Shown here: positions 6,281-31,930 of the stretch, piece after piece
Layout: every line of letters begins with the position of its first letter
Numbering within the stretch: the first letter of the stretch is position 1
NCBI GenBank assembly: GCA_026625185.1
Contig: CP113000.1
Span: 1,935,622 to 1,967,621, forward strand
Origin: Thermodesulfobacteriota bacterium
GTDB taxonomy: Bacteria > Desulfobacterota > WTBG01 > JAGOGO01
Direction: 5' to 3'
Length of the DNA stretch: 32,000 nt
Notes under the pieces: generated by a model
What the model was told of the DNA's origin: nothing
The model's database searches: none
Seen by the model: only the letters and a program-made list of their open reading frames with translations
Translations under genes and position numbers: made by a program

Positions 6281-6294
6281 TTTTTTGGTTATCG

Positions 6295-9681: not shown

Positions 9682-10122
9682 ATGAAAAAAAGAAAAGGAA
9701 TATTTCGGAGCCTAAAAGGGTTTACCTTGGTTGAGTTGATGATTGTGGTTATCATTATCGGTATTCTGACCGCAGTTGGCGTGCCTCTTTATATGGGGTA
9801 TGTCCGAGACGCCAAGGCCGCATCTGCTCAGGCGACTATTGGCGTTATTGTCAACGCCGAAAAACTTTACCACCAATTTCATGGGACATTTAAAGGTGGT
9901 ATTGACGTTTCGACTGTTCCTAATGACTTAAACATTGATGTCCGGGATGCGACCCAGTATTGGACGATCATAATTCCAAGTGCTTCCGATACTAACTTCA
10001 CGGCCTTAGCTACCGGGAAAGCAGGCACTGATTATGAAGGAATTCAAGTCGAACTTAAATACGATATGGCTAATCCAGAGGTATGGATCTTTAGAGAAAA
10101 CGGGATACAATGGAATACATAA
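9682..10122 (+). CDS. type IV pilin-like protein (prepilin-type N-terminal cleavage/methylation domain)
   Basis: MKKRKGIFRSLKG|FTLVELMIVVIIIGILTAVGVPLY is the class III signal with the G-F cleavage site and Glu+5. The start was moved to the ATG at 9682 (GGGGAG lies upstream). The 53-aa extension in the ORF track is not pilin-like. Confidence 0.85.
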   Translation: MKKRKGIFRSLKGFTLVELMIVVIIIGILTAVGVPLYMGYVRDAKAASAQATIGVIVNAEKLYHQFHGTFKGGIDVSTVPNDLNIDVRDATQYWTIIIPSASDTNFTALATGKAGTDYEGIQVELKYDMANPEVWIFRENGIQWNT

Positions 10123-16487: not shown

Positions 16488-16562
16488 TTCAAAAAAAACA
16501 TAGGGGGTTTTAAGATATAATGAGAGTTAAATAGGTAGGGGAAAAATAACCGGCACTAAAAG

Positions 16563-17069
16563 ATGAAAAAGATGAATTGTAAAGATATTCAAAGAAAGCT
16601 TAGCCAATACATTGATAATAGAATTTCTGCAAAAGAAAGATCGATAATAGAAACGCATATTAAAAAGTGTGTTTTCTGTGCAGCAGAAAAAGAAAAATTG
16701 GATAAAGTGACCACTGTTTTTCGCAGCATTCCAGAGTTTATCCCTATTCAGGATTCGGAGGAGGTTTTCTGGAAAAAGGTTCGGCAGGCAAGAAAACACC
16801 GGTTCATTGAAAAAATTCGTTCCCTCATTACCCAGTGGGATTTTATCCCGGTTTATTATCCGGCTACGGCCTTGTTTCTAATCGGGCTGGTGCTGGGAAT
16901 ATGCTTAGGTCCTGTTTATAACGGGACTTTCTATAAAAATAGATTTAGCTCTTCAAACATTACCTATTTAGCCTTAGATCGGATGGATACAATTCCGTAT
17001 CGCTCTTTTACCGGCGTATATCTGAGCGGCAAAGCTACACCTCATAAGTTCTCAAAGGAGGAACCTTGA
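16563..17069 (+). CDS. anti-sigma factor (zf-HC2, single TM)
   Basis: MNCKDIQRKLSQYID... with THIKKCVFC (H-x3-C-x2-C). Central TM segment YYPATALFLIGLVLGICLG. Lies immediately after the ECF sigma gene. Confidence 0.8.
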   Translation: MKKMNCKDIQRKLSQYIDNRISAKERSIIETHIKKCVFCAAEKEKLDKVTTVFRSIPEFIPIQDSEEVFWKKVRQARKHRFIEKIRSLITQWDFIPVYYPATALFLIGLVLGICLGPVYNGTFYKNRFSSSNITYLALDRMDTIPYRSFTGVYLSGKATPHKFSKEEP

Positions 17070-17548
17070 AAAAGTTGATACTATTATTGGTATTTGTCTT
17101 GGGAATAGGAGCGGCCTTTGTCTTAACTAAACATTTTATTTTCGAAAACCACAAACCAGACCATCCGGTTTCCATAAATTCCCAACATTGTGATCTTTCC
17201 TGCTGTGTTCCTGAGAATATTAAGCTCAGCCCCTCCCAAAAAGCGAAGATCCAACCACACGTGAGGGAATATTGTCAGTGCCGGGATACCCTCTCCATTC
17301 AGATTGACCAAAAAAGGTTGTCAGTGGCCAACCTTTTGCTTCAGCCGCATCCGGATTTTTTAGCAATTGATAATCTGTTAGAAGATATCGCCAAGCTTCA
17401 GAAAAAACTGGAACTGAAAACGATCAGCCATATTTTAGAGGTCAAAAACCTGTTGAAACCTGAACAGCAGGATCAGTTCATTAGACCCATTGTGAATGAA
17501 ATTCGCCGGCGATGTTATCACGGAGAATCTCTGAAGGAGAAAAGTTGA
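17066..17548 (+). CDS. Spy/CpxP-family periplasmic protein (periplasmic heavy-metal-sensor type)
   Basis: Signal/anchor KKLILLLVFVLGIGAAF. LxxxQ repeats LSPSQKAKI and LKPEQQDQF. TTG start 4 nt after AAGGAGG, overlapping the anti-sigma stop. Confidence 0.7.
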   Translation: MKKLILLLVFVLGIGAAFVLTKHFIFENHKPDHPVSINSQHCDLSCCVPENIKLSPSQKAKIQPHVREYCQCRDTLSIQIDQKRLSVANLLLQPHPDFLAIDNLLEDIAKLQKKLELKTISHILEVKNLLKPEQQDQFIRPIVNEIRRRCYHGESLKEKS

Positions 17549-17816
17549 CTTTCCTCAAAAAATACAATACTATTGCCGGAAGAAAAATGTTATTCGGAAT
17601 ACATAGTCTTCTCTCCTAAAATACATAGTTTACCCTATTATTCTGTTGCGATACGAAGAGGTATTATTTTAAAAGCTTGCTTCATTTATTCGCCAAAGTA
17701 ATTAGGGGGTAGACAGCAGACATTTTTAAAAAGGAAAGACTATCATAAACTATACGTGGTCTTTAATTTAGGGGCGGATTCGGGTGGTAAATTTTAAACT
17801 TTCAGAGGAGGAAGCC

Positions 17817-18206
17817 ATGAAAAGATTTTGTTTATGTATTTTTGTTTTTTTAATTGGTGTAACCCTTGGGTGTGCTAAGGGGTATGAAATAACCAAACCT
17901 GCAGGGGAATATAATGTGACTATTACTTTAGATAAAAGTCCTCCGGTAGCAGGTGAAAATCACATGACCATTATGCTCAAGGATACCACGGGCAAAATAG
18001 TAACTGATGCCACAGTAAAAGTTGAATACACAATGCCGGCCATGCCGGGGATGCCGGCAATGCATTATTCGGCAGAACCGAAGGTGCGAGGAAATGCATA
18101 TCATACAACGTTAAACCTTTCTATGTCGGGCGCATGGAACATTGCTATAAAAATTACCCACAACGATAAAACCGAAATGGTGAACTTCAATGTGGACGCC
18201 AGTTAA
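17817..18206 (+). CDS. FixH/YtkA-like lipoprotein with Met-rich motif
   Basis: MKRFCLCIFVFLIGVTLGC has a lipobox. NVTITLDKSPPVAGENHMTIMLKD...NLSMSGAWNIAIKI resembles FixH/YtkA-type domains. MPAMPGMPAM lies at 18033-18062. The ATG at 17817 is preceded by GAGGAGGAAG. Confidence 0.7.
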   Translation: MKRFCLCIFVFLIGVTLGCAKGYEITKPAGEYNVTITLDKSPPVAGENHMTIMLKDTTGKIVTDATVKVEYTMPAMPGMPAMHYSAEPKVRGNAYHTTLNLSMSGAWNIAIKITHNDKTEMVNFNVDAS

Positions 18207-19467
18207 CTTTATCAAAATTATTGCGGGGGGATTGTTCTTCTGTCTCTCTTCGGCTGTCTTTGCGCAAGAACTGAAGCTCAATGACCTGATTGAGGAGGCA
18301 TTGAAAAATAATCCGGAAATCCTTGCCGCTCAGGCGAGGGCGGAAGCTGCAAAATATAAAATCCCTCAGGCCAAGAGCCTTCCCGACCCGATGGTTATGT
18401 TCGGCTATCAGAATGAAGGGTGGGATAGGTACACTTATGGTGAGATGCAAGATGCCCAGTGGATGTTTTCTGCTTCCCAAATGTTTCCCTTCCCGGGGAA
18501 ACGATCATTAAAAGAGACCATGGCGGCAAAAGATGCAGAAAGCATAAATGCTTCTTATGCGGCAACCCAATTAAAAACCATTGCCAAAGTAAAGGAACTT
18601 TATTTTGATCTTTTCCTTACCTATAAGAACATTGACCTCACTCGAAACAAGACCTCCCTTTTTTCGCGTATCGAGGAAGCAGCGTTAGCGCGGTATTCAT
18701 CAGGCATGGCTCCCCAACAAGAAGTCATCATGGCTCAGACCGAAAAGTACATGGTTATAGAAAAAGAGGAAATGTTCAAGCAGAAAATTCAGGCTTTGGA
18801 GGCGATGTTAAACTCGACTCTCGGCCGTGGGAGTAATACCCCCCTCGGACGACCGGTTGAACCTGTTTCGGTTGCACTTCCCGCCACCCTGGATGAGCTT
18901 ATCGAAAAAGCCTACACCAATTCTCCGGAAATTAAAGCTCGAGAAAAGATGATTTCCGGTGCCGAAGCAAAAGTAGAGTTGGCGAAGAAAGAGTACTATC
19001 CTGATTTTACCATCAACGCCGGGGTCTCAAAACGACAAGGAATGTTTGAAGATATGTGGTACGTTACCAACACCATCAATATTCCTCTTTATTTTCGAAG
19101 CAAGCAGCGCCAGGGGGTTTTCGAGGCACAAGCATCTTTATCGGAAGCACAGAGCGAATGCGAGTCCATCAAGCTTATGATTGCCTCCGCCATACGAGAT
19201 AACTACTCTATGTTCAAAGCCGCGGAAAAATTGACTGAGTTATATCAAAGCGCTTTAATCCCTAAAACCTATCAGGGTTTTGAATCAGCCATTGCGGGAT
19301 ATGTAACCGGGAAGGTGGAAGCGATAACCACTATAAGCCGGCTTAAATCCTTGTTTGACTATGAGCTTCTTTATTGGGGGCAGGTCATTGAGAGGGAAAA
19401 AGCAATCGCAAGAATTGAGGCAATTACTGGAGGTGCCGACTTCATAACCGCAATGGGGGAAAAATGA
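18190..19467 (+). CDS. cusC: TolC-family outer membrane efflux protein
   Basis: 425-aa ORF with a signal peptide ending AVFAQE. LNDLIEEALKNNPEILAAQA is a typical OEP repeat. Overlaps its neighbours in a three-component operon. The symbol is assigned by operon context. Confidence 0.85.
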   Translation: MWTPVNFIKIIAGGLFFCLSSAVFAQELKLNDLIEEALKNNPEILAAQARAEAAKYKIPQAKSLPDPMVMFGYQNEGWDRYTYGEMQDAQWMFSASQMFPFPGKRSLKETMAAKDAESINASYAATQLKTIAKVKELYFDLFLTYKNIDLTRNKTSLFSRIEEAALARYSSGMAPQQEVIMAQTEKYMVIEKEEMFKQKIQALEAMLNSTLGRGSNTPLGRPVEPVSVALPATLDELIEKAYTNSPEIKAREKMISGAEAKVELAKKEYYPDFTINAGVSKRQGMFEDMWYVTNTINIPLYFRSKQRQGVFEAQASLSEAQSECESIKLMIASAIRDNYSMFKAAEKLTELYQSALIPKTYQGFESAIAGYVTGKVEAITTISRLKSLFDYELLYWGQVIEREKAIARIEAITGGADFITAMGEK

Positions 19468-20684
19468 AACCAAATAATCTGATTATCGATGCTCAAATTT
19501 TTTTGACTATCTTTCTTATTTGTTTTTTTCCACCCGACCCATTAATGAGTCATAGGATTTCACCAATTGCGTATGCCCAAACATCATCAATGCCGGGTAT
19601 GCCCGGCATGTCGTCTGAAACCCCTCAACCGGCTTCGACCGCACCGTCAGCTCTTCGTAAAGAAACTGCGGAAGTTCCATCGCTTCAGATATCCCCAGAG
19701 AAACAACAACTCATTGGTGTTAAGACAGTTGAGGCTTCGGTGAAGTCTCTTGAGAAAACAATCCGGACGGTTGGAAGAATTGAGTACGATGAAAAAAAAC
19801 TTGCTACGGTCAATACCAAAATCGAAGGCTGGATCGAAAAATTATTTGTGGACTATACCGGGAAGCAGGTAAAAAAAGGAGCGCCATTGGTTGAGATTTA
19901 CAGCCCAGAGCTTTTTGCTACTCAACAGGAATTTATTAACTTGGTAAAATGGAACAATACCCAAAGTTCAGAGGGTTTTGGAAAAATGCTTTCGCAGGAT
20001 TCGCAAAAGATTCTGGAAGCAGCACGAGAACGGCTGAGACTGTGGGACATAACTAATGACCAGATTAAAAAAATCGAAAAGACCGGTAAACCGATAAGGA
20101 GACTTAGGCTTTATAGTCCGGTGAGCGGATATGTTGTTCAGAAGATGGCACTTCAAGGAATGCGGGTAATGCCCGGAGAGAAACTTTTTGATGTTGCGGA
20201 TCTTTCTACGGTGTGGGTCATTGCGGATATTTATGAGTATGAGCTTTCTCTGGTAAAAGTGGGGGAGATTGCCAAGATAAACCTGAGTTATTTCCCTGAA
20301 AAGGAGTTTGAATCCTCGATTGACTATATCTATCCTACCCTTGCCGGTGAAACCAGAACCACCAAAATCAGGTTCACCATTCCCAACCCGGAAGGGAAGC
20401 TGAAACCGAATATGTTTACCGACGTGGTGCTGAAAATTTCACTCGGGACGAAACTTGTCATCCCGGAAGATGCTTTAATTGACACCGGGGTGAGACAAAT
20501 CGTGTATATTGATAAAGGTGAAGGATATTTTGAACCGCGGGAAGTTGTTCCTGGTGCAAGGGGGGAAGGGATGATAGAAATTATAAAAGGACTCTATGCA
20601 GGAGAAAAGGTCGCCTCGGCAGCCAATTTTCTTATTGACTCGGAAGCAAAGCTCAATGGGGTAGTGCCTCTTCATCAACATTAA
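19464..20684 (+). CDS. cusB: RND efflux periplasmic adaptor (membrane fusion protein)
   Basis: 406-aa ORF. GRIEYDEKKLATVNTKIEGWIEKLFVDYTGKQVKKGAPLVEIYSPEL is a lipoyl/HlyD-like region. N-terminal Met motif SSMPGMPGMSS. Confidence 0.88.
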   Translation: MKPNNLIIDAQIFLTIFLICFFPPDPLMSHRISPIAYAQTSSMPGMPGMSSETPQPASTAPSALRKETAEVPSLQISPEKQQLIGVKTVEASVKSLEKTIRTVGRIEYDEKKLATVNTKIEGWIEKLFVDYTGKQVKKGAPLVEIYSPELFATQQEFINLVKWNNTQSSEGFGKMLSQDSQKILEAARERLRLWDITNDQIKKIEKTGKPIRRLRLYSPVSGYVVQKMALQGMRVMPGEKLFDVADLSTVWVIADIYEYELSLVKVGEIAKINLSYFPEKEFESSIDYIYPTLAGETRTTKIRFTIPNPEGKLKPNMFTDVVLKISLGTKLVIPEDALIDTGVRQIVYIDKGEGYFEPREVVPGARGEGMIEIIKGLYAGEKVASAANFLIDSEAKLNGVVPLHQH

Positions 20685-20759
20685 ACAGAAGACGGAATTC
20701 CGAAGCCAGAAAAAATTTTAAAAATATTCTAAATTCTGACTCCTGACCCCTGAATTTAT

Positions 20760-23700
20760 ATGATCGCTAAAATTATCGAGTACAGCGCCCGAAACAAATT
20801 TATTATCTTTTTGTTTACCTTTTTTGCCCTTGCCTGGGGCTACTGGGCATTAAAAAATACCCCGCTTGACGCCCTGCCGGATTTAAGTGACACCCAGGTT
20901 ATTGTTTATACCGAATGGGGTGGCAGGAGTCCTGACTTAGTAGAAGATCAGATTACCTATCCTATTTCCTCAACCCTTCTTGCCGCCCCAAAAGTACAAG
21001 CGGTTCGAGGTTTTTCTTTTCTTGGGAGTTCTTTCATTTACATTATTTTCCAGGAAGGAACTGATATTTACTGGGCACGGAGCCGGGTTCTCGAATACCT
21101 CCAAGCCGTAAAAAACAAACTCCCGGCGGATGTGAATCCAATTCTTGGCCCGGATGCAACCGGCCTTGGCTGGGGATTTTCCTATGCATTAGTTGATGAA
21201 ACCGGAGAGCATGATCTTGCCCAACTTCGCTCGCTTCAGGATTGGAACCTGAAGCTGGCTATTGAGAGTGTTCCAGGGGTTTCTCAGGTTGCCAGTATTG
21301 GAGGTTTTGTCAAGCAGTACCAGGTCACCATCGATCCAAACCGTCTACAGGCTTATAACATTCCTCTAACCAAGGTTATGAATGCAGTGAGAAGGGGCAA
21401 CCTGGATGTTGAGGGGAGAGTTTTAGAGGTTTTCGGTTTTGAATACATGTTGAGGGGCAGGGGTTATATAAAGACCCTTAAAGACCTTGAAGACCTCTCA
21501 GTGGGGACCAACGGCGCAGGAACACCGATCTATTTGAAAGACATAGGACGTATTCAGCTTGGACCGGAGATACGGAGAGGGCTGGCCGACCTGGATGGAA
21601 AAGGAGAAGTGGCTGGGGGCATTGTAGTTATTAGGTTTGGCGAAAATGTGCTCAGTGTCATTGAACGGGTCAAAGAAAAAATTAAAAATAACATTGAACC
21701 GAGCCTTCCCAAAGGAGTAAAGATGGTCATAACCTATGACCGGTCTGACCTGATCCACCGTTCTATTAACACTCTCAAGGAAGAACTGGTCAAACTCTCA
21801 GTGGCGGTGAGCGCGGTTTGCCTGGTTTTTTTATTCCATTTGCCGAGCGCCCTGGTTGTCATCATTACGCTCCCGTTCGCCATCATCTTGTCCTTTGTCT
21901 GCATGTATTATTTAAAGGTCACTTCCAACATCATGAGTTTAAGCGGCATTGCTATTGCCATTGGGGCGATGGTGGATGCCGCGATCATTATGGTGGAAAA
22001 TGCTCATAAAAAACTTGAAGAGTGGGAAATACAAGGGAAGCTGGCTAACCGAACCGACGTAATCATCGAGGCGGCGAAGGAGGTTGGGCCGTCGTTGTTT
22101 TTTTCACTCTTAGTAATCACGGTGGGGTTCCTTCCGGTCTTTACTCTTCAGGGGCAGGCAGGAAGACTCTTTAAACCGCTTGCCTACACCAAGACCTTTG
22201 CCATGCTTTTTTCTTCCTTTATGGCGATAACCTTAACCCCGGTCTTAATGACCTTGTTAATTCGCGGGAGGATAAAGCCGGAGGAGAAAAATCCTTTAAG
22301 TTTGATCCTTCACCGCCTCTATGAGCCGGTTGCCTCCCTTGCTCTCCGATTTAAAAAGACGGTTATTATTCTTGCTCTTATAGTGCTGGCAATTTCTGTC
22401 TATCCCTTTTTGAAACTTGGTTCTGAATTTATGCCTTCCCTTTATGAAGGAACCCTTTTTTATATGCCGGTGACTGCTCCCGCTCCATCTATATCTGTGG
22501 TCTCAAAATTACTCCAGCTTCAGGACAAGATATTAATGAAGTTTCCGGAAGTGGCCCAGGTTTTTGGAAAAGCCGGCCGTGCGGAAACCGCTACTGACCC
22601 CGCTCCCCTGGAGATGTTTGAAACGATAATCAACCTGAAGCCCGAATCCGCGTGGAGACCGGGAATGACGGTGGAGAAACTGAAAAACGAGATGAATGAC
22701 GCTTTAACCATACCTGGGGTGGCGAATTCGTTTACCATGCCCATAAAGGCGCGGATCGATATGCTGGCAACCGGTGTCAGGACCCCCGTGGGGATCAAAA
22801 TTCTCGGCCCCAAACTTGAGGAAATTGAAAAAATAGGTCTAGATATTGAACACCACATGAAGAATATCCCCGGCACACGGAGCGCATATGCGGAAAGGGT
22901 TACCACCGGTTATTTCCTGGACTTCACCATCAAACGGGACGCGATTGCCCGATATGGTTTAACCGTTGAAGATGTTCACGACGTTATCCAGTCTGCTATC
23001 GGAGGGATGAATCTAACCACGACGGTGGAAGGAAGGCAGCGCTACCCGGTTAATATCCGGTATTCGCGAGAATTACGGGATGATCTGAAAAAACTGGAAA
23101 GAGTTTTTGTGCCAGTCATGAGGGAAAATGTCCCTTCTGGTTCGGGAATGCCAACTTCTTCTGCTTCAACACCCATTCAGGTGCCTTTGGGTGAGCTGGC
23201 AGAGATAAAAATTGCAACCGGACCAACAGTAATTAAAAGTGAGGAAGGGCTTCTTACTGCCTATGTTTTTGTGGACTTTTCCGGCCGGGATATAGGGGGA
23301 TATGTGAATGAGGCCAAAAAGAGTGTTGTCTCCCTGAAGATACCGGATGGCTATCATTTGGAGTGGAGCGGTGAATATGAATATTTGGTGAAGACCCATG
23401 AAAGGCTAAAACTAGTTATCCCTCTGACCATACTGATTATCTTTGTGCTCCTGTATTTTAATACCCGCTCAGTTACCAAAACACTAATTGTTTTTCTCGC
23501 GGTTCCTTTTTCTCTGGTAGGATCATTCTGGCTTCTTTACCTTCTCAACTACAATATGAGTATTGCGGTCTGGGTGGGTATCATCGCTTTGGCTGGTTTA
23601 GATGCGGAAACCGGAGTGGTTATGCTACTCTACCTGGACCTAGCTTATGCGCAGTGGAAAAAGGAAGGTAGATTAAATACTATCAGTGACCTTAAGGATG

Positions 23701-23930
23701 CGATCATGCACGGCGCAGTAAAAAGGATAAGGCCAAAAATTATGACCGTAAGTGTTATCTTGGCCGGTCTTATCCCAATTATGTTCAGCCACGGCACAGG
23801 CGCAGATGTGATGAAGCGGATCGCCGCACCTATGATCGGAGGCGTTATCACCTCCACTATCCTCGAGCTGATCATTTATCCTGCCATATACTTGATATGG
23901 AAGGGAAGGGCATTAAAAAATATCACATAG
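20760..23930 (+). CDS. cusA: CusA/CzcA-family heavy-metal RND efflux pump (Cu(I)/Ag(I)-type)
   Basis: 1056-aa, 12-TM RND protein. Strong resemblance to E. coli CusA around the three-Met site: EGTLFYMPVTAP, APLEMFETIINLKP and IKARIDMLATG. Confidence 0.93.
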   Translation: MIAKIIEYSARNKFIIFLFTFFALAWGYWALKNTPLDALPDLSDTQVIVYTEWGGRSPDLVEDQITYPISSTLLAAPKVQAVRGFSFLGSSFIYIIFQEGTDIYWARSRVLEYLQAVKNKLPADVNPILGPDATGLGWGFSYALVDETGEHDLAQLRSLQDWNLKLAIESVPGVSQVASIGGFVKQYQVTIDPNRLQAYNIPLTKVMNAVRRGNLDVEGRVLEVFGFEYMLRGRGYIKTLKDLEDLSVGTNGAGTPIYLKDIGRIQLGPEIRRGLADLDGKGEVAGGIVVIRFGENVLSVIERVKEKIKNNIEPSLPKGVKMVITYDRSDLIHRSINTLKEELVKLSVAVSAVCLVFLFHLPSALVVIITLPFAIILSFVCMYYLKVTSNIMSLSGIAIAIGAMVDAAIIMVENAHKKLEEWEIQGKLANRTDVIIEAAKEVGPSLFFSLLVITVGFLPVFTLQGQAGRLFKPLAYTKTFAMLFSSFMAITLTPVLMTLLIRGRIKPEEKNPLSLILHRLYEPVASLALRFKKTVIILALIVLAISVYPFLKLGSEFMPSLYEGTLFYMPVTAPAPSISVVSKLLQLQDKILMKFPEVAQVFGKAGRAETATDPAPLEMFETIINLKPESAWRPGMTVEKLKNEMNDALTIPGVANSFTMPIKARIDMLATGVRTPVGIKILGPKLEEIEKIGLDIEHHMKNIPGTRSAYAERVTTGYFLDFTIKRDAIARYGLTVEDVHDVIQSAIGGMNLTTTVEGRQRYPVNIRYSRELRDDLKKLERVFVPVMRENVPSGSGMPTSSASTPIQVPLGELAEIKIATGPTVIKSEEGLLTAYVFVDFSGRDIGGYVNEAKKSVVSLKIPDGYHLEWSGEYEYLVKTHERLKLVIPLTILIIFVLLYFNTRSVTKTLIVFLAVPFSLVGSFWLLYLLNYNMSIAVWVGIIALAGLDAETGVVMLLYLDLAYAQWKKEGRLNTISDLKDAIMHGAVKRIRPKIMTVSVILAGLIPIMFSHGTGADVMKRIAAPMIGGVITSTILELIIYPAIYLIWKGRALKNIT

Positions 23931-23945: not shown

Positions 23946-25868
23946 TTGAGCGCACATGGTAAAAACCCATTTTTGGAAAAAGGAACCGTTCTCAACGGCA
24001 AGTGGGAGATCATCGAACATATTGCCACCGGTGGAAAAGGTGAGGTGTACCGCGCCCGGCAGATCAATTTGGACCGGCCGGTAGCTGTAAAAATAATTTC
24101 GGAAGGATTACTCGCGTCTTTTGATGATGACCAAGAGGAGATTAAAGCCACATTGGAGCGATTCCGACGCGAAGTTCTCACCATGGCTCAGGTGCGTCAT
24201 CCCAATATCCTTCAGGTTTATGACCAGGATCAGGCGGTTATTCAGAAGGGTGGTACTACGTCATCAATTGACTATCTTGTGATGGAGTATATTCCCGGGC
24301 CCACACTTCGATCCATTCTTCATTCGGAAGGGTTACGGGATAATGAGAAAGATATCCGGAAATGGATTAGAGAATATTTTTTCCCTATCCTGGACGGGGT
24401 ACAAAAACTCCACGACTTGGGAATTGTTCACCGTGACTTAAAGCCTGAAAATGTACTCCTGGATGAATTTACTCCTAAAATTACCGACTTTGGACTCGCC
24501 GGAGGTCCCCGCTGGCAGGGGGTTACCCGAAGTCATCACATGGAAGGAACCATACCGTACATGCCTCCGGAACAGATAATGGATCTGGGGGGCACTGATT
24601 CCCGAGGTGACATCTATGCATTGGGAAAAATTCTTTATGAAGTCGTCATCGGAAAAATGGGCAAGGATACCGCCTTTCCCCTCAAAACCGCCCACCTTTT
24701 AAATCCTGACACCCTTTTTCTGAAACGGTTGGACCGTATCATTCAACAAGCCACGGCAGAGGACAAAACAAAACGAATCCCTTCGGTAAGTGTCTTGAGG
24801 AAAGCCCTGTTAGATACTTTGGAGGGAACCGAAGAAACTTTGTTTTCATCCCAGAGGCCTCGAACCAAGAAGGCTCGCCTTGCTGTAGCAATGGTAGCAC
24901 TTCTTGTAGTAGCATCCATAGGGTTCCACATTCTCTATCACCGGGCAAAATCATCTCAGCCCCCCATTGCGGTACCGTCTTCGCTTCCCGGTGTTACTCC
25001 GGGTTTAGCCCCCCAAAAAGAAAAGATTACTCCCCTTAACTCAAATGCTCCTTTGACCGTTAAAGGAAAAGATGGAGCAATTCTTCATCTGGTCCCTCAG
25101 GGCAAGCTTACCTTTCCAGAAAGTTTCGGGCTGCAAGCGGGAACATTTGATGTCCCTGCTTTTTACATGGATGAGATAGAGGTTACCAATCAACAGTATG
25201 TGGACTTTTTAAATCACGTCCTCTCCACCATCCGGGTAGAGGATGGGGTGGTAAAGGTTAACGGTGATATCTGGCTCCTTTTGGAAGAGGTTAAGGAGGG
25301 ATACGATCCCATTATGTTCCATAACGGGAAATTTTTCGTTACTGACCCAAAGTACGATTATTATCCGGTAGTGCGGATTACCGCTTACGGAGCTGAAGCA
25401 TATGCTCGTTTTTACCGAAGACGTCTGCCCAATGAGGTAGAGTGGTTCTATGTGAGGAGAGGCGGGTTCAAACGCTCAGAAACACCAGCGGTGGATTCAC
25501 CAGAACCTTCAGGAACAATGATGAACATGGATAACATGCACTCCCACACGGGAGACACCATCCATGGCCAGGTCTCTTCACCTCCAACTCCCCCGCAAAG
25601 TCATCAAAAACTTTCTGACTCAGTGTTCGATTCTAAACCTAATCCTTATGGGATTAGGGGTATGGATGAAAATGTAAGCGAATGGGGGATACGATTTCAA
25701 AAGACATCCTTACGGGAGAAGGAAGAAACACAATACATCATCTTAGGCGGATTGAACACCGGGTTGACAAAAGAAAATAAAATGATTCAGGGCATCCCGC
25801 GACATCCTTGGGAGGCGTTTGCGGAAGTGGGATTCCGGTGCGTCTCGGATGTTACAAATTATCAATAA
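23946..25868 (+). CDS. Ser/Thr protein kinase - TM - formylglycine-generating-enzyme (SUMF1/FGE) domain fusion
   Basis: Kinase motifs GGKGEVY, VAVKII, HRDLKPENVLL, DFGLA and PYMPPE. TM segment LAVAMVALLVVASIGFHILY. C-terminal FYMDEIEVTNQQYVDFL...RLPNEVEWFYV...NPYGIRGMDENVSEWG...GFRCV. TTG start 11 nt after an AGGAGG that spans the cusA stop. Confidence 0.88.
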   Translation: MSAHGKNPFLEKGTVLNGKWEIIEHIATGGKGEVYRARQINLDRPVAVKIISEGLLASFDDDQEEIKATLERFRREVLTMAQVRHPNILQVYDQDQAVIQKGGTTSSIDYLVMEYIPGPTLRSILHSEGLRDNEKDIRKWIREYFFPILDGVQKLHDLGIVHRDLKPENVLLDEFTPKITDFGLAGGPRWQGVTRSHHMEGTIPYMPPEQIMDLGGTDSRGDIYALGKILYEVVIGKMGKDTAFPLKTAHLLNPDTLFLKRLDRIIQQATAEDKTKRIPSVSVLRKALLDTLEGTEETLFSSQRPRTKKARLAVAMVALLVVASIGFHILYHRAKSSQPPIAVPSSLPGVTPGLAPQKEKITPLNSNAPLTVKGKDGAILHLVPQGKLTFPESFGLQAGTFDVPAFYMDEIEVTNQQYVDFLNHVLSTIRVEDGVVKVNGDIWLLLEEVKEGYDPIMFHNGKFFVTDPKYDYYPVVRITAYGAEAYARFYRRRLPNEVEWFYVRRGGFKRSETPAVDSPEPSGTMMNMDNMHSHTGDTIHGQVSSPPTPPQSHQKLSDSVFDSKPNPYGIRGMDENVSEWGIRFQKTSLREKEETQYIILGGLNTGLTKENKMIQGIPRHPWEAFAEVGFRCVSDVTNYQ

Positions 25869-25964
25869 CCCTCTTTAGCTTTGCCCGCACTTCCTCCGCA
25901 ACAGTCCTAAGCTTGCGATTATCTACTGCGGCCATGGGGGCAACCGGGTCAATGGCAGTGGCGC

Positions 25965-26292
25965 TCAGAGTAGCTTCCCTATTTCTGTACGCCATCGGAC
26001 TTGGTAAAGGTTCGGATAAAGGCAGTTACATCGGCTGTTTCTTTTTCTGTCAAAACAACACCCCAGGCCGGCATCTGGGGGGATAGGCCCAAGGCAGACC
26101 ACGCCTCTGAGAACCTTTTCAATCTGCTTATCGGATAGGACCGCCAATTTGGCACGATTTGTAAGGTTCTTTGGCGGGGTAGTCATTTTGTAGGAATTGA
26201 AACCGTCTCCTTTTCCACTTTTACCATGGCAAAAAACGCAATAATACCCATAAAGGATAAAAAAGTGCAAAAAGAAGTCTTCGCCCCCGCAT
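25965..26292 (-). pseudogene. monoheme class I cytochrome c, disrupted by apparent frameshifts at homopolymers
   Basis: The listed frame gives ...YYCVFCHGKSGKGDG...SDKQIEKVLRG and then nonsense. The -1 frame after a C6 run (plus-strand G6 at 26077-26082) reads PQMPAWGVVLTEKETADVTAFIRTFTKSDGVQK*, which contains the distal Met ligand. The only upstream ATG (26292, MRGRRLLFAL) is in yet another frame across T5/T6 runs (26259-26273). Confidence 0.6.
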
Positions 26293-26356: not shown

Positions 26357-27871
26357 TTACTCCACCAAAGCGCCCTTATGGCAGTCGCTGCACAAAAATT
26401 CTAAGCTTATCTCTCCTCCCGGGTGGTCGAATGTAAGGCCTTCAGGGCTAATGGACTTAGTTTCTACGCCAGACCCCTGGCTTATAATAATATGGCAGGT
26501 GTTGCAGTCGTGTGAGATTTTTTTTCCATCTGAGCTTACATGCTCTCCGTCATGGCACCGCACACATCCCGGCCAGATTGAATGTCCGATATTATCCGGA
26601 AATTTTTTCCAGCTCGCCTTCATTTCTGGGAAGAAATTTTCACGGAATATCCTTTGAATTTCGGAGATGGCGCTAAGAATTTTATTTTTATCCCTGTAAC
26701 CAGCATAGTCCGCCATTAGTTTCTTCTTCACGTTCTCCAACCCTTCAGACTCTGTTTTGCTAGTCTCGCCGCTTTCCACCAGCGCTTGAACCCCATTTTT
26801 CTTAATAAAGGGTATGGACTGATCGATTCGCCCAAACAATAAGGCATCGTCCATTGCTTTGTCCGGCGTGGAATAGATATGGGTCGGACGATTGTGGCAG
26901 TCGATACAATCCATCAATCTGGGGCTTGCTTTGGAAATTGTATCGGCTTTCAGTTCCTTTCCTCTGGATTGGTATATGGTCGCACTTCCATCCGGATGAA
27001 TGACTTTTACCCACGGGATTTCCTGCCGGTCATCTTTTGTTGCTATGTATTCCACTCGAGTCTCTGGGCTCATGTGCCAGTGGATCCCGCCCACGGGAAC
27101 TCGTGAGGGGTCACCTCCTCCGACCTTAAGTAATAGGCGGATCGTCCAGGGATCATTATTTTCCGTCATACCAAAATGGGTACGAATCCTCTCGACCGAC
27201 CCCGAAAACTTCTGAGGCCAGTGGCATTGTTCACAGGTCTCCCGTGCGGGCCGGAGATTTTTAACAGGGGTTGGAATGGGGTGGGGATACTTCTCAGCGA
27301 TAGTCGCGTAAATTTGATAGGCTCCTGAAATCTTTGATTTTACGAAAAAGCTTGCTCCCGGGCCTACATGGCACTCCGTGCAGGGTACCCTCGCATGTGG
27401 CGATCTTTTGTATAAAGTATATTCCGGTTTCATGACAGAGTGACATAAAAGTCCGCAAAAGTGGACGGATTCTGTAAAGTGATAGAGTCGGTAGGTGCCG
27501 AGAAAGGAAAAAAGAAGAAAGGAAAAAGAAATAACCAAAACTGCAATTAAAGTATTCCGATGAGAAGATATGCTGAGGTCAATATGTGGAAGCGGTGGAG
27601 GACATCTCTTTGCTGCTATATGACGACACCGGCGCTCATTCCAAGCGCCCACAACGACTAAAAGCAGACCCGTGATCAACCCGCCGGGTATGAGAACATA
27701 GGTTATTACGGCTGTGTAAGGGCTTGTAAAACCACGAATAAAGTCGATTCCGAAAAGAGCAAGGACAGCGATGAAACTGCAAATAGCCAGGATAATCCCC
27801 AAAAAACTCATCCAATTATTCAGGAGAGATGGTTCTTTGGAAGGGACTATACTTGGTGGAGAGTCAGGCAT
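26357..27871 (-). CDS. inner-membrane multiheme cytochrome c, NapC/NirT-related, ImcH-like (7 heme motifs)
   Basis: Three N-terminal hydrophobic helices. Heme motifs are FCGLLCH (CX3CH), CTECH, CEQCH, CIDCH, CVRCH, CNTCH and CSDCH. 504 aa. Confidence 0.8.
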   Translation of the reverse strand: MPDSPPSIVPSKEPSLLNNWMSFLGIILAICSFIAVLALFGIDFIRGFTSPYTAVITYVLIPGGLITGLLLVVVGAWNERRCRHIAAKRCPPPLPHIDLSISSHRNTLIAVLVISFSFLLFSFLGTYRLYHFTESVHFCGLLCHSVMKPEYTLYKRSPHARVPCTECHVGPGASFFVKSKISGAYQIYATIAEKYPHPIPTPVKNLRPARETCEQCHWPQKFSGSVERIRTHFGMTENNDPWTIRLLLKVGGGDPSRVPVGGIHWHMSPETRVEYIATKDDRQEIPWVKVIHPDGSATIYQSRGKELKADTISKASPRLMDCIDCHNRPTHIYSTPDKAMDDALLFGRIDQSIPFIKKNGVQALVESGETSKTESEGLENVKKKLMADYAGYRDKNKILSAISEIQRIFRENFFPEMKASWKKFPDNIGHSIWPGCVRCHDGEHVSSDGKKISHDCNTCHIIISQGSGVETKSISPEGLTFDHPGGEISLEFLCSDCHKGALVE

Positions 27872-28151
27872 AAAAGCCCCGTTGCACTTTTTGTTCTTTC
27901 ATTCGGGCCATTCAACCGTTTATTGACCCATTCTGGTATTGAAAGGAAAACCCTCGCTTGCAGGCGGAGACTTTAGTATGCATGCGGTATGGAGAATGGT
28001 TGTAAATCCAGTCATACCCTATACGACAGCAAATATCAAGTTGTTGGGATCACGAAATGCCGCAAGCCGATCCTTAAGGCCGATAGTGACCGGAGAATTC
28101 AAGATTCGATCCTTAAGATTTGCCAATTTAAACCGATCTTCAAGCGCAGGA

Positions 28152-28490
28152 TCACTTGCCCTTAAGTGTCCGAAGAAATTTGACGATTTCCTTAACCTCT
28201 TCAGCTGTGAGCTTTTCTTTGAACGGAGGCATCACGATTTTTCCTGAGCTATCTTTGACTCCCTCGTTGATGCCCTTGGCTGCCTGGTCATCGGTAAATG
28301 CTTCTTGCACTTTCGGGTTGGTCAGGTCACGGCACTTTAGTTTCTGGCACATCGGGGTCGTTCCTTTACCATCCTTACCGTGGCAGAGGGCGCATTTTTT
28401 TGCCCATATTTCTGCACCAGCCGCGATGGCGGTTCCAGTAAGATTAAGGAGAAAAAAAACCAAGGCCACACCTATCAGAACTTTTTTCAT
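28152..28490 (-). CDS. periplasmic monoheme class I cytochrome c
   Basis: Signal peptide MKKVLIGVALVFFLLNLTGTAIA. CALCHGKDGKG heme motif, MPPF distal Met region and LTAEEVKEIVKFL C-terminal helix. Confidence 0.85.
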   Translation of the reverse strand: MKKVLIGVALVFFLLNLTGTAIAAGAEIWAKKCALCHGKDGKGTTPMCQKLKCRDLTNPKVQEAFTDDQAAKGINEGVKDSSGKIVMPPFKEKLTAEEVKEIVKFLRTLKGK

Positions 28491-28636
28491 AGTAACACCC
28501 CCTTTTTTTCTTTTAATAACAACTCTTTTTTAATGGAATAATTATAAAAAAGTTTTAGGGTCTAGACTGGATTAGCACAGGTAAGAGTGCTAAAAAGGTA
28601 GTCATAACAATAAGTAACAAGTACTTAAAGCGTTAA

Positions 28637-28921
28637 AAAATTTCTGAGGCTAAATTTCGAGAGTTTATCAGATACCTTTCTCTGGATTTAGACGCTCATA
28701 AAATTGCTTTTTTGACCGGTTTAAATCGCAATACCGTTAATCGTTATGTTTTGCTCATCAGAAAAAGGATTGCCGAGTTCTGTGAGCAATCATCTCCTTT
28801 TTCCGGAGAAGTCGAAGTAGACGAATCATACTTCGGAGAGCGTGTCCTCAGCATGTTTGGCCACGGCAATCAAGAACGGCGGTACCACCGCCATTACCAG
28901 TTTATCCGCGGTGCCCGATAA
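28637..28921 (+). mobile_element. IS1595-family transposase remnant (N-terminal HTH region only, no start, truncated at the DDE domain)
   Basis: The open frame from 28637 reads KISEAKFREFIRYLSLDLDAHKIAFLTGLNRNTVNRYVLLIRKRIAEFCEQSSPFSGEVEVDESYFGERV. From memory, this block ending in EVDESYFG precedes the IS1595 DDE domain. Sequence after ~28850 is unrelated. No ATG start and no inverted repeats seen. Confidence 0.65.
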
Positions 28922-28982
28922 AAGATATTAAAACAATGAGTGCGCGGTTGAATCACCCAATTGTCACTAACTCATAAGCTCA

Positions 28983-30971
28983 TTAGAACCTGTACTGCAA
29001 AAATCCCTGCACAACATGCGCCGTGGCGTCCGGGTAGAACCCGCCCAGGGTATTTAACGACTGATCATTGCCCGGCGCGCCCGCCGCGGTGATTCCCCGC
29101 AGGAAAAGCCTTTCGTACGCGCTGCTTATGCGAAACATCTGGAATATATACCCCGCTCCGACATCCCAGTGATCGTTGAACCGGTAGTTGAACCATGTAT
29201 CTACATCGGCGTAGGATTCGTTCAGATTGGGCATGACCGGGTTGTGGAAATCCGAGGTCGAATGGGAGTAGCTGGCGCTGGTCTTGAGACTCAGCTTGTT
29301 CGGAATGAGCTTAATATCCGCTCTGGCGACCACAGTGTCAAATGAATCGGAGGTGATCAAAGTGGGTCCCTCATCACCCCCGACCAGACCAGGTTCATCA
29401 TTAATTAGGAATGTGGCGGCCAATTGTTTAACTCGGAGTTGCTGGTGGTCGTATCCAAGGCTCAACGCGACCCGGTCATGCGGGCTCCAGCTCACATCCG
29501 CGCCGGCCGACCAGCCTCGATCTCTTTGGATACCAAAATCCGAGTCGGTAAAGTTGTCGTTATAGATCGAAAAATTGAGTGAGAAGGTGACATTATTCAA
29601 AGGATACACTTCTGCAATGAAATTGGCGTTGTTACGGATGAGATTTCCCGCGTAGAATTTGTAAGTCAGCGGCACCTGCGTCGCCTCCCCCGTCGGGTTC
29701 ACAAATGCTACATTATTATGCCCTTCCCGGTCTGTGAACGCATAGTTGGCGTTAAGGCTCAGCCAGTTAGTAGGAGACCACCTGAGGCCCGTCTGGGGCG
29801 AGTGACTCGAGGTCGAGCCCAGTTCATGTTTGCGGGAGACTCCCTTCCAGGAATAGCCGACAGTGAAGGCCATCTTCTGGTTCACTTTATAGTCGGCTCC
29901 GAGGTTGACACCCTGCCGTAAATACGAGTAATGCTCAGCCTTGAAAAGAGCTTGGTTTTCCCCGAATGCCGTTTCCAAAAGTTGATTCATTGTGCTATCA
30001 TTCGAAAAATCATAATAATTGTACGAATATCTCAAGGTTAGCGGGGGCCAGAGACGGGTGACGCCGGAAATATTCGCGTTCACAGTCGAGTCGTCGAGAC
30101 CCGGATCGCCGATCGTAACACCATTTCTATCGATGACGAGGTCGTTCTCGGACAGCCAGCCGTAGGAAAACGAACCGGTGAGCCTGGTCTTGTAGGCAAG
30201 CAGGTTCAGGGACCCCTCCCCGGTTACGTAGTTGGCTTTATTGCTGGGGGGCAGGGCTACAAAGGAATTCGTCGTATTCTGGCGGCCCAGAACAAGGTCA
30301 TTCTCATTGTCAAAGTTCGAAAAATGATAAGACACACGACCCTGAAACACCACCGGCTGATCATATTCCACGCCGACTTTCAGGTCGTTTTGCTTATCAT
30401 CAATCGGTCTGATATAGGTGAAAAAATTAAGGGGATTGCCAGGGCCTGTAATATAGGTCCCGGGTTGCGAGCCGGTTCTCTTCAGGAAATCGTTCTCGGC
30501 GAAAAGGGTGATGTTAAGGGTCGGATTGTAGTAGCCGCTGAACCGCAGTCTCTGCACCAGGGTCCTGATACTGGTATCAAAGGGATTCACCGTGCTGTAA
30601 AGGTGTTGCAGCGAGTCATATTCAATCTCGGAATGGTAGACCCCAAGTTTGCCCGCCTGGAGCAAGAAATCCTGATCCCTTAATCCCGGATGGCTCATCC
30701 AGAATCTATAATACTCAAGGCCGTCCTTGCTCTTCAGCGATAAATCCGTTTCCGCGAGAAACCCTTCGGGGAAGGGAATATACTTTTCCAAAAATCCCGC
30801 GTTTCTGTGAAGGGGGGGATCGGCGAGAAATCCTCCGCCCAAGGAGATATAGCCGCCCAACGTGTAATTACCCGCATCCATTTCAGCAATTCCGCCCCTA
30901 CAGGTCAGAGTGATAAACATGACTGCAAGAAAAAAGACCAGAAATTCTCTCTTAATCTTCACCTTCATCAC
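28983..30971 (-). CDS. outer-membrane beta-barrel, MtrB/PioB-family (decaheme-associated porin)
   Basis: 662 aa with a signal peptide. Y/G/N/S/T-rich alternating-strand composition and a C-terminal ...GFLQYRF terminal Phe. Starts 8 nt after the decaheme cytochrome gene, the mtrA-mtrB / pioA-pioB / mtoA-mtoB gene order. Confidence 0.75.
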   Translation of the reverse strand: MMKVKIKREFLVFFLAVMFITLTCRGGIAEMDAGNYTLGGYISLGGGFLADPPLHRNAGFLEKYIPFPEGFLAETDLSLKSKDGLEYYRFWMSHPGLRDQDFLLQAGKLGVYHSEIEYDSLQHLYSTVNPFDTSIRTLVQRLRFSGYYNPTLNITLFAENDFLKRTGSQPGTYITGPGNPLNFFTYIRPIDDKQNDLKVGVEYDQPVVFQGRVSYHFSNFDNENDLVLGRQNTTNSFVALPPSNKANYVTGEGSLNLLAYKTRLTGSFSYGWLSENDLVIDRNGVTIGDPGLDDSTVNANISGVTRLWPPLTLRYSYNYYDFSNDSTMNQLLETAFGENQALFKAEHYSYLRQGVNLGADYKVNQKMAFTVGYSWKGVSRKHELGSTSSHSPQTGLRWSPTNWLSLNANYAFTDREGHNNVAFVNPTGEATQVPLTYKFYAGNLIRNNANFIAEVYPLNNVTFSLNFSIYNDNFTDSDFGIQRDRGWSAGADVSWSPHDRVALSLGYDHQQLRVKQLAATFLINDEPGLVGGDEGPTLITSDSFDTVVARADIKLIPNKLSLKTSASYSHSTSDFHNPVMPNLNESYADVDTWFNYRFNDHWDVGAGYIFQMFRISSAYERLFLRGITAAGAPGNDQSLNTLGGFYPDATAHVVQGFLQYRF

Positions 30972-30979
30972 CCCCCCTC

Positions 30980-31930
30980 TTATCTAGAGAATAAATTGCC
31001 GTTTACATTGTTGCTGCCGTGGATGCTCCGGTGACAGTTGATGCACCCGCCGCCGGCCATCATATTTACCCTTGTCTGTGGCTGCCCTCCGACCGTGAAA
31101 TTGACGTTGTGGTAGGTAATGTGGCACTCCCGGCACAACCTGATGGGCGGGGATTTCAGCAGGCTGGGATAGGCGCTGCCGTGGGGCTTATGGCAATTGA
31201 AGCAATCCTCTATGACGGGAGGGTGCTGAAAAACGAACGGACCTCGGTACTGGGCGTGGCAATTAAAGCAGAGTTCTTTATTGGAAAGCCCCTTTACCAG
31301 CTTGGCCGAAGTAGTCCCGTGCGGGTTGTGGCAACTCGCGCAGTCCATTTTTCCTTCGCGCAGGGGATGATGCGAAAACTGCAGCTCCGCGCGGACTTGC
31401 TCTTTATGACAGGTAAGGCACGTATCCCCTACGGTTATATTGGCGAGTTGAGCACGGACCGTTATTCCCGGTCCCGTATGGACTGCGTGGCATGAGGTGC
31501 AGGCGAGGCCTTCGGTTTCATGAGCACTGCCCGCCCAGAAAAGCCTCTCCCTCTTTTGATGGCAGTTGAGACAGACATCGTTGCGCACGGAAATAGGCGT
31601 GGGCGACTCCTTCGTAAATCGCACCATACCCTCGAAGGTTTTGCCTCCGGAGTCCACATGGTCTGTTCCCGGTCCATGACACGTTTCACACCCAAGTTTT
31701 TCATCAGCGGTAGGGGGGTGCTTCAGAAACAGGGTGCCCATAGTCGTCTTGGTGAGCTGCTCGTACACCTGAAAGTGACAGGTTTGGCAGCTTTCCACGC
31801 CCGTATACCCTTCCTTGGCCCTTTCGGCCTTTTCGTCCTCCCCTTTTGCCGGCCCTTTGGAAAAACAGAGAAGGAAAATCACTCCGAGATAGACAAGAGT
31901 CAGTGCGGGTATAAGAATTCTGCGCATCAC
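30980..31930 (-). CDS. periplasmic decaheme cytochrome c, MtrA/DmsE/PioA/MtoA family
   Basis: 316 aa with a signal peptide. Ten CXXCH motifs: CQTCH, CETCH, CLNCH, CTSCH, CLTCH, CASCH, CFNCH, CFNCH, CRECH, CINCH. C-terminal CINCHRSIHGSN resembles the family ending. Confidence 0.9.
   Translation of the reverse strand: MMRRILIPALTLVYLGVIFLLCFSKGPAKGEDEKAERAKEGYTGVESCQTCHFQVYEQLTKTTMGTLFLKHPPTADEKLGCETCHGPGTDHVDSGGKTFEGMVRFTKESPTPISVRNDVCLNCHQKRERLFWAGSAHETEGLACTSCHAVHTGPGITVRAQLANITVGDTCLTCHKEQVRAELQFSHHPLREGKMDCASCHNPHGTTSAKLVKGLSNKELCFNCHAQYRGPFVFQHPPVIEDCFNCHKPHGSAYPSLLKSPPIRLCRECHITYHNVNFTVGGQPQTRVNMMAGGGCINCHRSIHGSNNVNGNLFSR

Follow-up and report, generated by a model that had tools for sequence, protein, structure and literature searches.

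The Mto pathway of Sideroxydans lithotrophicus ES-1 (MtoA, MtoB, MtoD, CymA/ImoA) is encoded by a cluster with four parts: a decahaem cytochrome of the MtrA family, a barrel of the MtrB/PioB family in the outer membrane, a monohaem cytochrome that is small and soluble, and, in the inner membrane, a quinone oxidoreductase of the NapC/NirT superfamily. Here we describe a segment of a Thermodesulfobacteriota genome in which the same four-part content is clustered, and in which the inner-membrane part is of the ImcH type known from Geobacter. It lies in a 32-kb stretch of contig CP113000.1 (positions 1,935,622 to 1,967,621), referred to below as the window; the flank beyond the window end was taken from the identical Joint Genome Institute (JGI) contig L008. 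In our opinion the segment probably encodes a complete quinol-to-surface pathway, with outward electron flow as the favoured direction. All the parts that span the inner membrane, the periplasm and the outer membrane are encoded together, and this arrangement is recurrent.

The window cluster and the Mto cluster are also alike in having no MtrC-type surface cytochrome. They differ in the inner-membrane protein, which has 504 amino acids (aa), three transmembrane (TM) helices and seven haem sites in the window and is a tetrahaem, 1-TM protein of ~200 aa or less in Mto. They differ as well in the monohaem cytochrome (predicted to be His/Met-ligated and a relative of Kuenenia c-552 in the window, not MtoD), in the decahaem protein (placed in a separate Desulfobacterota clade, with ~42% identity to a Nitrosomonadales MtoA-like protein) and in the host, which is a Thermodesulfobacteriota anaerobe as opposed to a microaerophilic iron oxidiser.

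MtrCAB with CymA of Shewanella (6R2Q, Shewanella baltica) resembles the segment in its decahaem protein, MtrA, to which that of the window is homologous, in its barrel, MtrB, the closest to ours in structure, and in the adjacency of the two genes. Unlike the Shewanella system, the window cluster has no MtrC/OmcA in the ~40 kb examined, no CXXC motif in the barrel, and an ImcH-type rather than a CymA-type protein in the inner membrane. With PioABC of Rhodopseudomonas palustris TIE-1 the cluster shares a decahaem protein and barrel without a surface cytochrome, together with a small, high-potential periplasmic carrier. In PioABC this carrier is a high-potential iron-sulfur protein (HiPIP) and not a cytochrome c, and we know of no dedicated quinone oxidoreductase in that cluster. 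The long N-terminal extension of PioA-type proteins has no counterpart in the 316-aa protein of the window; the PioA-like open reading frames (ORFs) that we recovered were 471 aa long in Rhodomicrobium (L052) and 361 aa in Afifella (L044).

ImcH of Geobacter sulfurreducens (GSU3259) has 507 aa, and the 504-aa protein of the window is like it in its three TM helices, motif spacing and haem-1 residues. In Geobacter and in the nearest unlinked relatives of the window protein, neighbours and partners are triheme c7 cytochromes (PpcA-type) and Pcc/Ext conduits, whereas the window protein has an MtrAB-type conduit and a monohaem cytochrome of class I as its neighbours. In Desulfuromonas acetexigens (ISME J 2025, PMC12133095) the mtrAB genes are clustered, mtrC is not adjacent to them and transposases lie nearby; the genome encodes homologues of ImcH and CbcL as well. 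In the Desulfobacterota of that study ImcH and CbcL are expressed, as is a homologue of CymA that was proposed to serve Mtr. The study reports co-occurrence and co-expression in one genome and describes no mtrAB-cytochrome c-imcH cluster. Its taxa are mainly Desulfuromonadia, whereas relatives of the window clade are annotated as Desulfobaccales or Syntrophobacteraceae.

Proteins encoded by the segment

A preliminary description of the window, made from its sequence, had recognised four minus-strand genes as one cluster. All four are present (Table 1) and on one strand, but they are not contiguous: although the barrel gene starts 8 nt past the decahaem stop codon, a gap of 492 nt, which holds a plus-strand remnant of an insertion sequence (IS) of the IS1595 family, precedes the cytochrome c gene, and another of 280 nt separates the latter from the ImcH-like gene.

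The inner-membrane protein was assigned by the published architecture, motif spacing and key residues of GSU3259. It has hydrophobic segments at residues 24-42, 55-73 and 107-125, with AlphaFold2 (AF2) helices at 20-45, 51-86 and 102-133. Its "7 heme motifs", as they had been described, are indeed seven sites, but six are CXXCH (at 164, 213, 322, 436, 456 and 494) and one, at 139, is CX3CH (CGLLCH). According to Zhong and Shi (PMC6295460), ImcH homologues are 495-519 aa long and have three TM segments, six CXXCH and one further, atypical motif, CX3CH, that adjoins the membrane domain. Table S3 of the same survey gives the motif starts of GSU3259 as 132, 156, 205, 311, 428, 448 and 486 and its TM segments as 13-35, 45-67 and 100-122. 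Relative to GSU3259 the motifs of the window protein are offset by +7/+8/+8/+11/+8/+8/+8, and the motif spacings are 25/49/109/114/20/38 compared with 24/49/106/117/20/38. In GSU3259, H137 and Q179 are the ligands of haem 1, while E127, K173 and Y188 lie at an NrfH-like menaquinol site (bioRxiv 10.1101/2023.05.03.539133). At an offset of +7 their counterparts are H144, Q186, E134, K180 and Y195; all of 55 homologues share the first four, and 44 of them have Y195.

Profile searches agree with a NapC/NirT-like core. PF03264 matches residues 105-195 (37.7 bits, cut-off 24.1), the NrfH model TIGR03153 matches residues 110-218, and NrfH itself (2J7A_C) is found at E 0.0067; beyond this region, residues 105-218, NCBIfam and Pfam returned no ImcH-specific match. 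The AF2 model is poor, with a predicted local distance difference test score (pLDDT) of 68 that falls below 50 in the haem-binding regions, and a Foldseek search of it against the PDB gave nothing with E <0.25; only its three TM helices are relied on here. The family is very large: more than 7,900 clusters matched, many at 50-55% identity and ~500 aa, with members annotated from Verrucomicrobia, Gemmatimonadetes and other phyla, which agrees with the published spread of ImcH. Judging by these features, we accept the 504-aa protein as a predicted ImcH-family member, in line with the preliminary view that the inner-membrane partner is ImcH-like rather than CymA-like. The tetrahaem CymA/NapC/ImoA type, with one TM segment and four CXXCH in ~200 aa or less, was considered and rejected on length, TM number and haem count, and no other CymA-type candidate occurs in the window or the upstream flank.

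The decahaem protein carries exactly ten CXXCH motifs in 316 aa and a signal-like hydrophobic segment at residues 5-23. It matches the DmsE-family model TIGR03508 over almost its whole length (243.3 bits, E 2.7e-72; cut-off 192.2; positions 1-256 of the 258 in the model) and MtrA (6R2Q_A) with E 1.8e-53, residues 37-316 aligning to 56-333, in line with the MtrA-type pairing proposed earlier. The ten Cys/His pairs are invariant across 35 homologues. A 100% identical protein from a Thermodesulfobacteriota metagenome-assembled genome (MAG) has been labelled a DmsE family decaheme cytochrome by the NCBI Prokaryotic Genome Annotation Pipeline (PGAP); the deposited version begins one codon later than the window ORF. 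Identity amounts to ~36% with Shewanella MtrA and 41-43% with PioA-like proteins. In a neighbour-joining tree the protein falls within a distinct Desulfobacterota clade, every member of which with enough flank is ImcH-linked. A DmsEFAB-type extracellular reductase was also considered and rejected, as no molybdopterin or iron-sulfur (Fe-S) subunit is encoded nearby.

Public gene calls for two related contigs contain an antisense ORF in place of the decahaem gene, 158 aa long in L001 and 120 aa in the P0001 contig. The gene missed in L001 lies at 6054-7001, and the window equivalent of the antisense ORF at 31019-31495. Surveys relying on such calls would undercount MtrA homologues.

The barrel protein was recognised by PF11854 (MtrB_PioB) with 195.6 bits against a gathering score of 23 (E 2.1e-57, residues 75-662). 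Of the two NCBIfam models that had been named for the pair, TIGR03508 was exceeded by the decahaem protein (243 against 192), but TIGR03509 was not reached by the barrel (125 bits against 240), which points to a divergent member of the MtrB/PioB family. The PGAP label of the identical (100%) NCBI protein is likewise MtrB/PioB family. A phmmer search of the PDB with the barrel sequence alone gave no match, and MtrB was recovered only by a family profile and a fold search: a profile of 48 homologues found 6R2Q_B (MtrB) at E 8.9e-18, and the same chain was the best Foldseek match of the AF2 model (E 2e-24, template-modelling scores 0.72/0.73). The next matches were 22-strand TonB-dependent receptors, with scores of at most 0.45. 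The model itself (pLDDT 76.5, pTM 0.67) has 26 strands of at least eight residues, which agrees with the ~26 that the preliminary description had required of a barrel able to sheath the decahaem protein. The proposed MtrA-MtrB-type pairing, with a large barrel encoded 8 nt past the decahaem gene and ending in YRF (...LQYRF), is thus borne out by both family and fold matches, and in nearly all of 80 related loci, too, the barrel gene lies directly downstream of the decahaem gene. The barrel contains a single Cys (C24) and no N-terminal CXXC. Among gammaproteobacterial reducers that motif is a mark of MtrB; it is not known from MtoB or PioB.

The third protein, of 112 aa, is a soluble class I cytochrome c with one CXXCH and matches to PF13442/PF00034. 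Its only His is that of the haem motif, so bis-His ligation is impossible and the haem must be His/Met-ligated. MtoD of Sideroxydans is a bis-His-ligated monohaem cytochrome, and its structure is presumably in the PDB. A search of the PDB with the window protein gave 24 matches at E <=0.01, none of them named MtoD; the nearest was Kuenenia c-552 Ks_3358 (5MXY, E 1.9e-9), with its MPPF Met region aligned. The single His and this nearest relative rule out MtoD homology, so the MtoD-like role suggested before holds by position only, while the assignment to soluble class I cytochromes stands. Downstream of the ImcH-like gene lie the remains of a second such cytochrome, whose CVFCH and MPAWG...FIRTF parts are read in different frames; conceptually repaired, it scores 30.5 bits with PF13442 (cut-off 27).

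Table 1. Features of the segment and of other parts of the window
Feature	Position	Strand	Basis or content
Decahaem c-type cytochrome, periplasmic/barrel-inserted (MtrA/MtoA/DmsE family), 316 aa	30980..31930	-	TIGR03508, 10 CXXCH, 6R2Q_A
Outer-membrane 26-strand beta-barrel (MtrB/MtoB/PioB family), 662 aa	28983..30971	-	PF11854, AF2, Foldseek
IS1595-family transposase, N-terminal remnant, in the barrel-to-cytochrome c gap	28640..28921	+	NF033547
Soluble class I monohaem cytochrome c, 112 aa, signal peptide, CALCH	28152..28490	-	PF13442/PF00034
Predicted haem c protein of the inner membrane, ImcH family (quinol:cytochrome c oxidoreductase), 504 aa, 7 haem sites, 3 TM	26357..27871	-	Architecture, spacing, residues, PF03264
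Second class I cytochrome c pseudogene, frameshifted, N-terminally truncated	25981..26280	-	CVFCH and MPAWG in different frames
DUF302 3' fragment, downstream copy of ~169-nt direct repeat	25792..25960		DNA alignment, protein match
N-terminal Ser/Thr kinase, TM and C-terminal FGE-sulfatase (formylglycine-generating enzyme-like) fusion, 640 aa	23946..25868	+	
Heavy-metal genes	15921..23930		ECF (extracytoplasmic function) sigma, zf-HC2 anti-sigma, Metal_resist, OEP/CusB-like/CusA-CzcA efflux
Type IV pilin-like protein	9523..10122	+	N_methyl motif, ComP_DUS-like domain
Response-regulator/adenylate-guanylate cyclase fusion	7948..9033	-	
Tryptophan operon, complete-looking	374..6188	-	Anthranilate synthase I and II, TrpD-, IGPS-, PRAI-, TrpB-like

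Linkage and probable mobility of MtrAB and ImcH modules

The neighbourhood of related genes was surveyed in one genome per GTDB species by a scan with the decahaem alignment; the best 80 loci were kept with 10-kb flanks, and their ORFs were searched with hidden Markov models built from homologues. Many of these loci are cut short by contig ends, and the neighbour counts overlap. An ImcH-like ORF was found within 10 kb of the MtrA-like gene in 18 of the 80 loci, in 10 of them within 2.5 kb and on the same strand. CymA-like neighbours (3-5 haems, 140-260 aa, 1-2 TM) were present in 14 loci and CbcL-like ones (at least five haems and at least four TM) in 10, whereas 48 had none of the three types. 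With one or two imcH copies in a genome of 3-6 Mb, chance would be expected to produce the linkage in <1% of cases.

The linked loci belong to Desulfobacterota (L011, L012, L064), Gemmatimonadota (L022) and Acidobacteriota (L027, L038, L048, L063, L068, L071, L072, L075, L080 and others). The order seen in the window, A-B-monohaem-ImcH, recurs in L012, L064 and L080 as well as in the close relatives L001 and the P0001 contig. A CbcL-like gene precedes ImcH in L027 and L068 (A-B-monohaem-CbcL-like-ImcH), and in L063, L071 and L075 the order is monohaem-ImcH-A-B with gaps of 10-36 nt. Intergenic gaps of just 7-36 nt occur in these three loci and in L048. The presence of several ImcH subclades and of both gene orders among the linked loci suggests that ImcH was recruited to MtrAB independently, and the recurrent linkage supports a predicted functional coupling of the two modules.

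Some of these loci differ from the window in their cytochromes. In the Acidobacteriota L027, L068, L039, L045, L046 and L072, MtrA and MtrB stand ahead of a monohaem cytochrome of class I, a CbcL-like protein with 11-13 haems and 5-6 TM, and an ImcH-like protein. L063, L071, L075, L048 and L038 (Vicinamibacterales and other Acidobacteriota) encode a shorter ImcH of 421-482 aa with CX3CH and five CXXCH; in four loci its gene is 7-36 nt from mtrA or mtrB, and in L038 the distance downstream of mtrB is ~1.2 kb. These shorter variants, with L072, stand apart from the seven-haem types in the ImcH tree.

The ImcH-type protein of the window is 60-66% identical to the ImcH proteins of L002, L004 and L005, whose genes have no MtrAB linkage and sit beside c7-type and CbcL-like genes, and only 49-53% identical to those of other MtrAB-linked Desulfobacterota loci, despite 66-70% identity of the decahaem proteins there. 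The ImcH tree and the decahaem tree thus disagree on the linked relatives of the window, which suggests that the pairing was made or remade more than once; we read this as a sign of selection for the combination, and it agrees with the presence of the IS junction. In L002 and L004 (62% identity to the window's ImcH) a small c7-type cytochrome gene lies upstream, and the multihaem genes and a Ni_hydr_CYTB cytochrome b gene downstream look like a split CbcL-like set, a Geobacter-like arrangement.

Several scars show how the segment may have reached its present place. The IS1595 remnant (NF033547, E 3.8e-8, model positions 5-79 of 215) is also found in the same gap of L001 (8978-9325) with ~90% DNA identity, while the cluster proteins of the two are 64-87% identical; the junction between barrel and cytochrome c genes is therefore old and has been kept. 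A ~169-nt direct repeat of 80% identity, found by a repeat search that took in L008, brackets the segment at a spacing of 6378 nt. Its upstream copy forms the 3' terminus of a DUF302 gene that is intact and lies just past the window end (L008 9590-9758), and the copy in the window matches the DUF302 C-terminus at 29 of 38 aa (E 2e-18). The pair marks an inserted or duplicated segment of ~6.4 kb. In close relatives the surroundings of the cluster are quite different and include integrase or IS4-like genes: it is flanked by a Rieske/cytochrome b complex, ArgJ and SecA in L001, and by an integrase and rpsB-tsf in the P0001 contig. Taken together, the repeat, the IS remnant and the non-conserved flanks suggest that the four genes behave as a mobile cassette.

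The 2018 survey (PMC6295460) found no mtrAB/mtoAB genes adjacent to imcH, and a 2024 survey of Desulfuromonadia cytochromes recorded DmsE/MtoA/MtrA genes with MtrB/PioB porins and noted no ImcH linkage. Our literature search, which left most subscription journals outside its reach, found no description of an mtrAB-imcH cluster. The preliminary description was therefore right in calling the combination uncharacterised as far as this search goes, but the combination is recurrent and not a one-off. What is apparently unreported is how known modules are combined here, an arrangement that recurs among uncultured bacteria of soil and peat.

Direction of electron flow and competing explanations

In the pathway that we propose, the ImcH-type protein, with its three-helix anchor and NrfH-like haem-1 quinol site, would exchange electrons with menaquinol/menaquinone. 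The class I monohaem cytochrome, probably together with other periplasmic cytochromes, would carry them across the periplasm, and the decahaem wire inside the 26-strand MtrB-type barrel would take them through the outer membrane. Because no MtrC/OmcA-like surface cytochrome is encoded nearby, partners in soluble or colloidal form would react directly with the decahaem protein at its exposed terminal haem. With outward flow, the substrates would be chelated Fe(III), humic quinones and other higher-potential acceptors, respired as with Geobacter ImcH. In this lineage the cytochrome c-ImcH half would have joined the MtrAB half at the old IS1595 junction. Such a scheme presumes that the parts are physically and functionally coupled and co-expressed, and its direction and substrate are predictions.

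The outward direction is favoured, though unproven, and flow in the opposite sense would be a clearly smaller possibility. Geobacter depends on ImcH for acceptors above ~-0.1 V, and the protein takes electrons from menaquinol in an electroneutral reaction and passes them to periplasmic cytochromes (bioRxiv 10.1101/2023.05.03.539133); ImcH homologues have been found only in reducers (PMC6295460). Moreover, the CbcL-like and ImcH genes that stand side by side after MtrAB in several Acidobacteriota loci mirror the pair of low- and high-potential quinol oxidases of Geobacter. The host itself, a relative of sulfate reducers, is a MAG of an anaerobic lineage, from wetland- or peat-type metagenomes. 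These are the reasons for our preference.

Several points weigh against it. The outward pathway is predicted from gene content. Co-transcription is not evident from the sequence, and the two long gaps with the opposite-strand IS remnant leave a single operon unproven; a scan of the cluster for promoter and terminator consensus sequences gave nothing above shuffled background. The architecture without MtrC and with a class I monohaem cytochrome looks like that of Fe(II)-oxidising MtoAB/PioAB. A His/Met monohaem cytochrome usually has a high potential, which is awkward between the haems of ImcH and an MtrA-type wire, and Geobacter ImcH does not interact with the high-potential monohaem cytochrome PccH (bioRxiv 10.1101/2023.05.03.539133). 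No MtrC/OmcA-like gene was found in the 32-kb window or 10 kb upstream, where no other ORF has two or more CXXCH, so the absence reported earlier stands for this region; an mtrC-like gene may nevertheless lie elsewhere in the 3.3-Mb genome, as Desulfobacterota are reported to hold mtrC apart from mtrAB (PMC12133095). The 80 MtrA-like loci are those most similar to the decahaem protein, and the 22% that are ImcH-linked is not a global frequency for Mtr/Mto/Pio. Finally, in a reverse census none of 80 metagenomic ImcH-like loci (42-63% identity) had an MtrB-like neighbour, from which it follows that ImcH also serves other partners: it would be a generalist, with MtrAB as one client.

The same parts might instead work in reverse, as in Mto and Pio. 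Fe(II), reduced humics, a syntrophic partner or a mineral would then donate electrons to MtrAB, the monohaem cytochrome would carry them inward, and the ImcH-type protein would act as a quinone reductase. The gene content does parallel mtoA-mtoB-mtoD-cymA/imoA clusters, as had been pointed out before; a typical one, recovered in the Nitrosomonadales locus L082, encodes A, B, a small c-type cytochrome and a 4-haem NapC-like protein. The lack of a nearby MtrC/OmcA, the barrel with its single Cys and no N-terminal CXXC, and a carrier of a usually high-potential type all fit this explanation, and for the CymA and CbcL/MtoC families electron flow in either direction is on record (PMC6295460). Homologues of ImcH, however, have so far been tied only to reducers. 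In Geobacter the haems of ImcH range from -150 to -358 mV, and menadiol reduces the protein only partly (bioRxiv 10.1101/2023.05.03.539133); with all haems below -100 mV, reduction of quinone from a high-potential cytochrome would be steeply uphill. Beside the cluster there are no genes for an oxidase, a nitrate reductase or a photosystem, and the CbcL-like and ImcH-like genes beside MtrAB in Acidobacteriota resemble the outward set of Geobacter. We therefore regard electron uptake as unlikely, although it is the strongest competitor of the outward pathway.

It might also be assumed that MtrAB and cytochrome c-ImcH are independent modules which an IS1595-mediated event has merely placed side by side, each serving a pathway of its own, with ImcH feeding, for example, other periplasmic reductases. 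The IS1595 remnant does sit exactly at the junction, the closest relatives of the window's ImcH are not linked to MtrAB, its identity to linked Desulfobacterota ImcH is low for loci with such similar decahaem proteins, and the reverse census found no MtrB linkage. Against such a chance neighbourhood, junction and remnant have been kept between lineages whose proteins are only 64-87% identical and so have long been retained. In addition, the linkage in 18 of 80 MtrA-like loci extends over three phyla, different ImcH subclades and orders, with gaps down to 7-36 nt, and an exchange of ImcH types at an unchanged position speaks for selection acting on the pairing. These observations make chance an improbable explanation. 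Least credible of all, and very improbable, is a heavy-metal defence island that would carry out surface redox of a toxic metal (such as Cu, Cr or U species) and not respiration: the segment does lie between CusCBA-type efflux genes with ECF sigma/anti-sigma factors and Metal_resist on one side and DUF302 with an HMA P-type ATPase on the other, but the flanks are wholly different in the closest relatives (L001 and the P0001 contig) and the DUF302 repeat shows the segment to be inserted, so the metal context is probably incidental and detoxification was rejected as the main role.

Surroundings and meaning of the combination

Upstream of the decahaem gene, beyond the window end, L008 carries the DUF302 gene, the HMA P-type ATPase (both within L008 6659-9698) and signalling genes. 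On the other side, the kinase-sulfatase fusion lies beside the inserted segment, after the heavy-metal genes of the window. Farther away, the response-regulator/cyclase fusion adjoins the type IV pilin-like protein, and a tryptophan operon occupies the first part of the window.

The finding involves no new protein family or principle: the parts are known, and it is the pairing of these outer and inner modules that is undescribed. Conduits of the MtrAB/MtoAB/PioAB type are widespread in soil, peat and sediment metagenomes, and their inner-membrane link to quinones outside Proteobacteria had been unclear. Gene order supplies such a link, as MtrAB of Desulfobacterota, Acidobacteriota and Gemmatimonadota can have an ImcH-type gene, sometimes with a CbcL-like one, for a neighbour. 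This adjacency contradicts the only published survey that we found (PMC6295460).

A bolder idea is that the segment represents a mobile plug-in cassette, repeatedly assembled from MtrAB and ImcH modules, which connects the quinone pool to the surface in either direction in anaerobic soil and peat bacteria. We think this rather unlikely. If it were true, ImcH would act as a quinone reductase when electrons are drawn from Fe(II), partner cells or reduced humics. This would overturn the view of ImcH as a quinol oxidase only and supply the entry point at the inner membrane that is still missing for electron uptake in bacteria other than Proteobacteria.

With the outward pathway as the favoured reading, the segment offers a testable wiring diagram for extracellular respiration, or for electron uptake, in abundant uncultured bacteria of peat and soil. 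As a compact cassette of four genes it could be moved into model hosts. It also amounts to a natural experiment that asks if ImcH can serve a periplasmic partner other than c7, and if it can operate in reverse.

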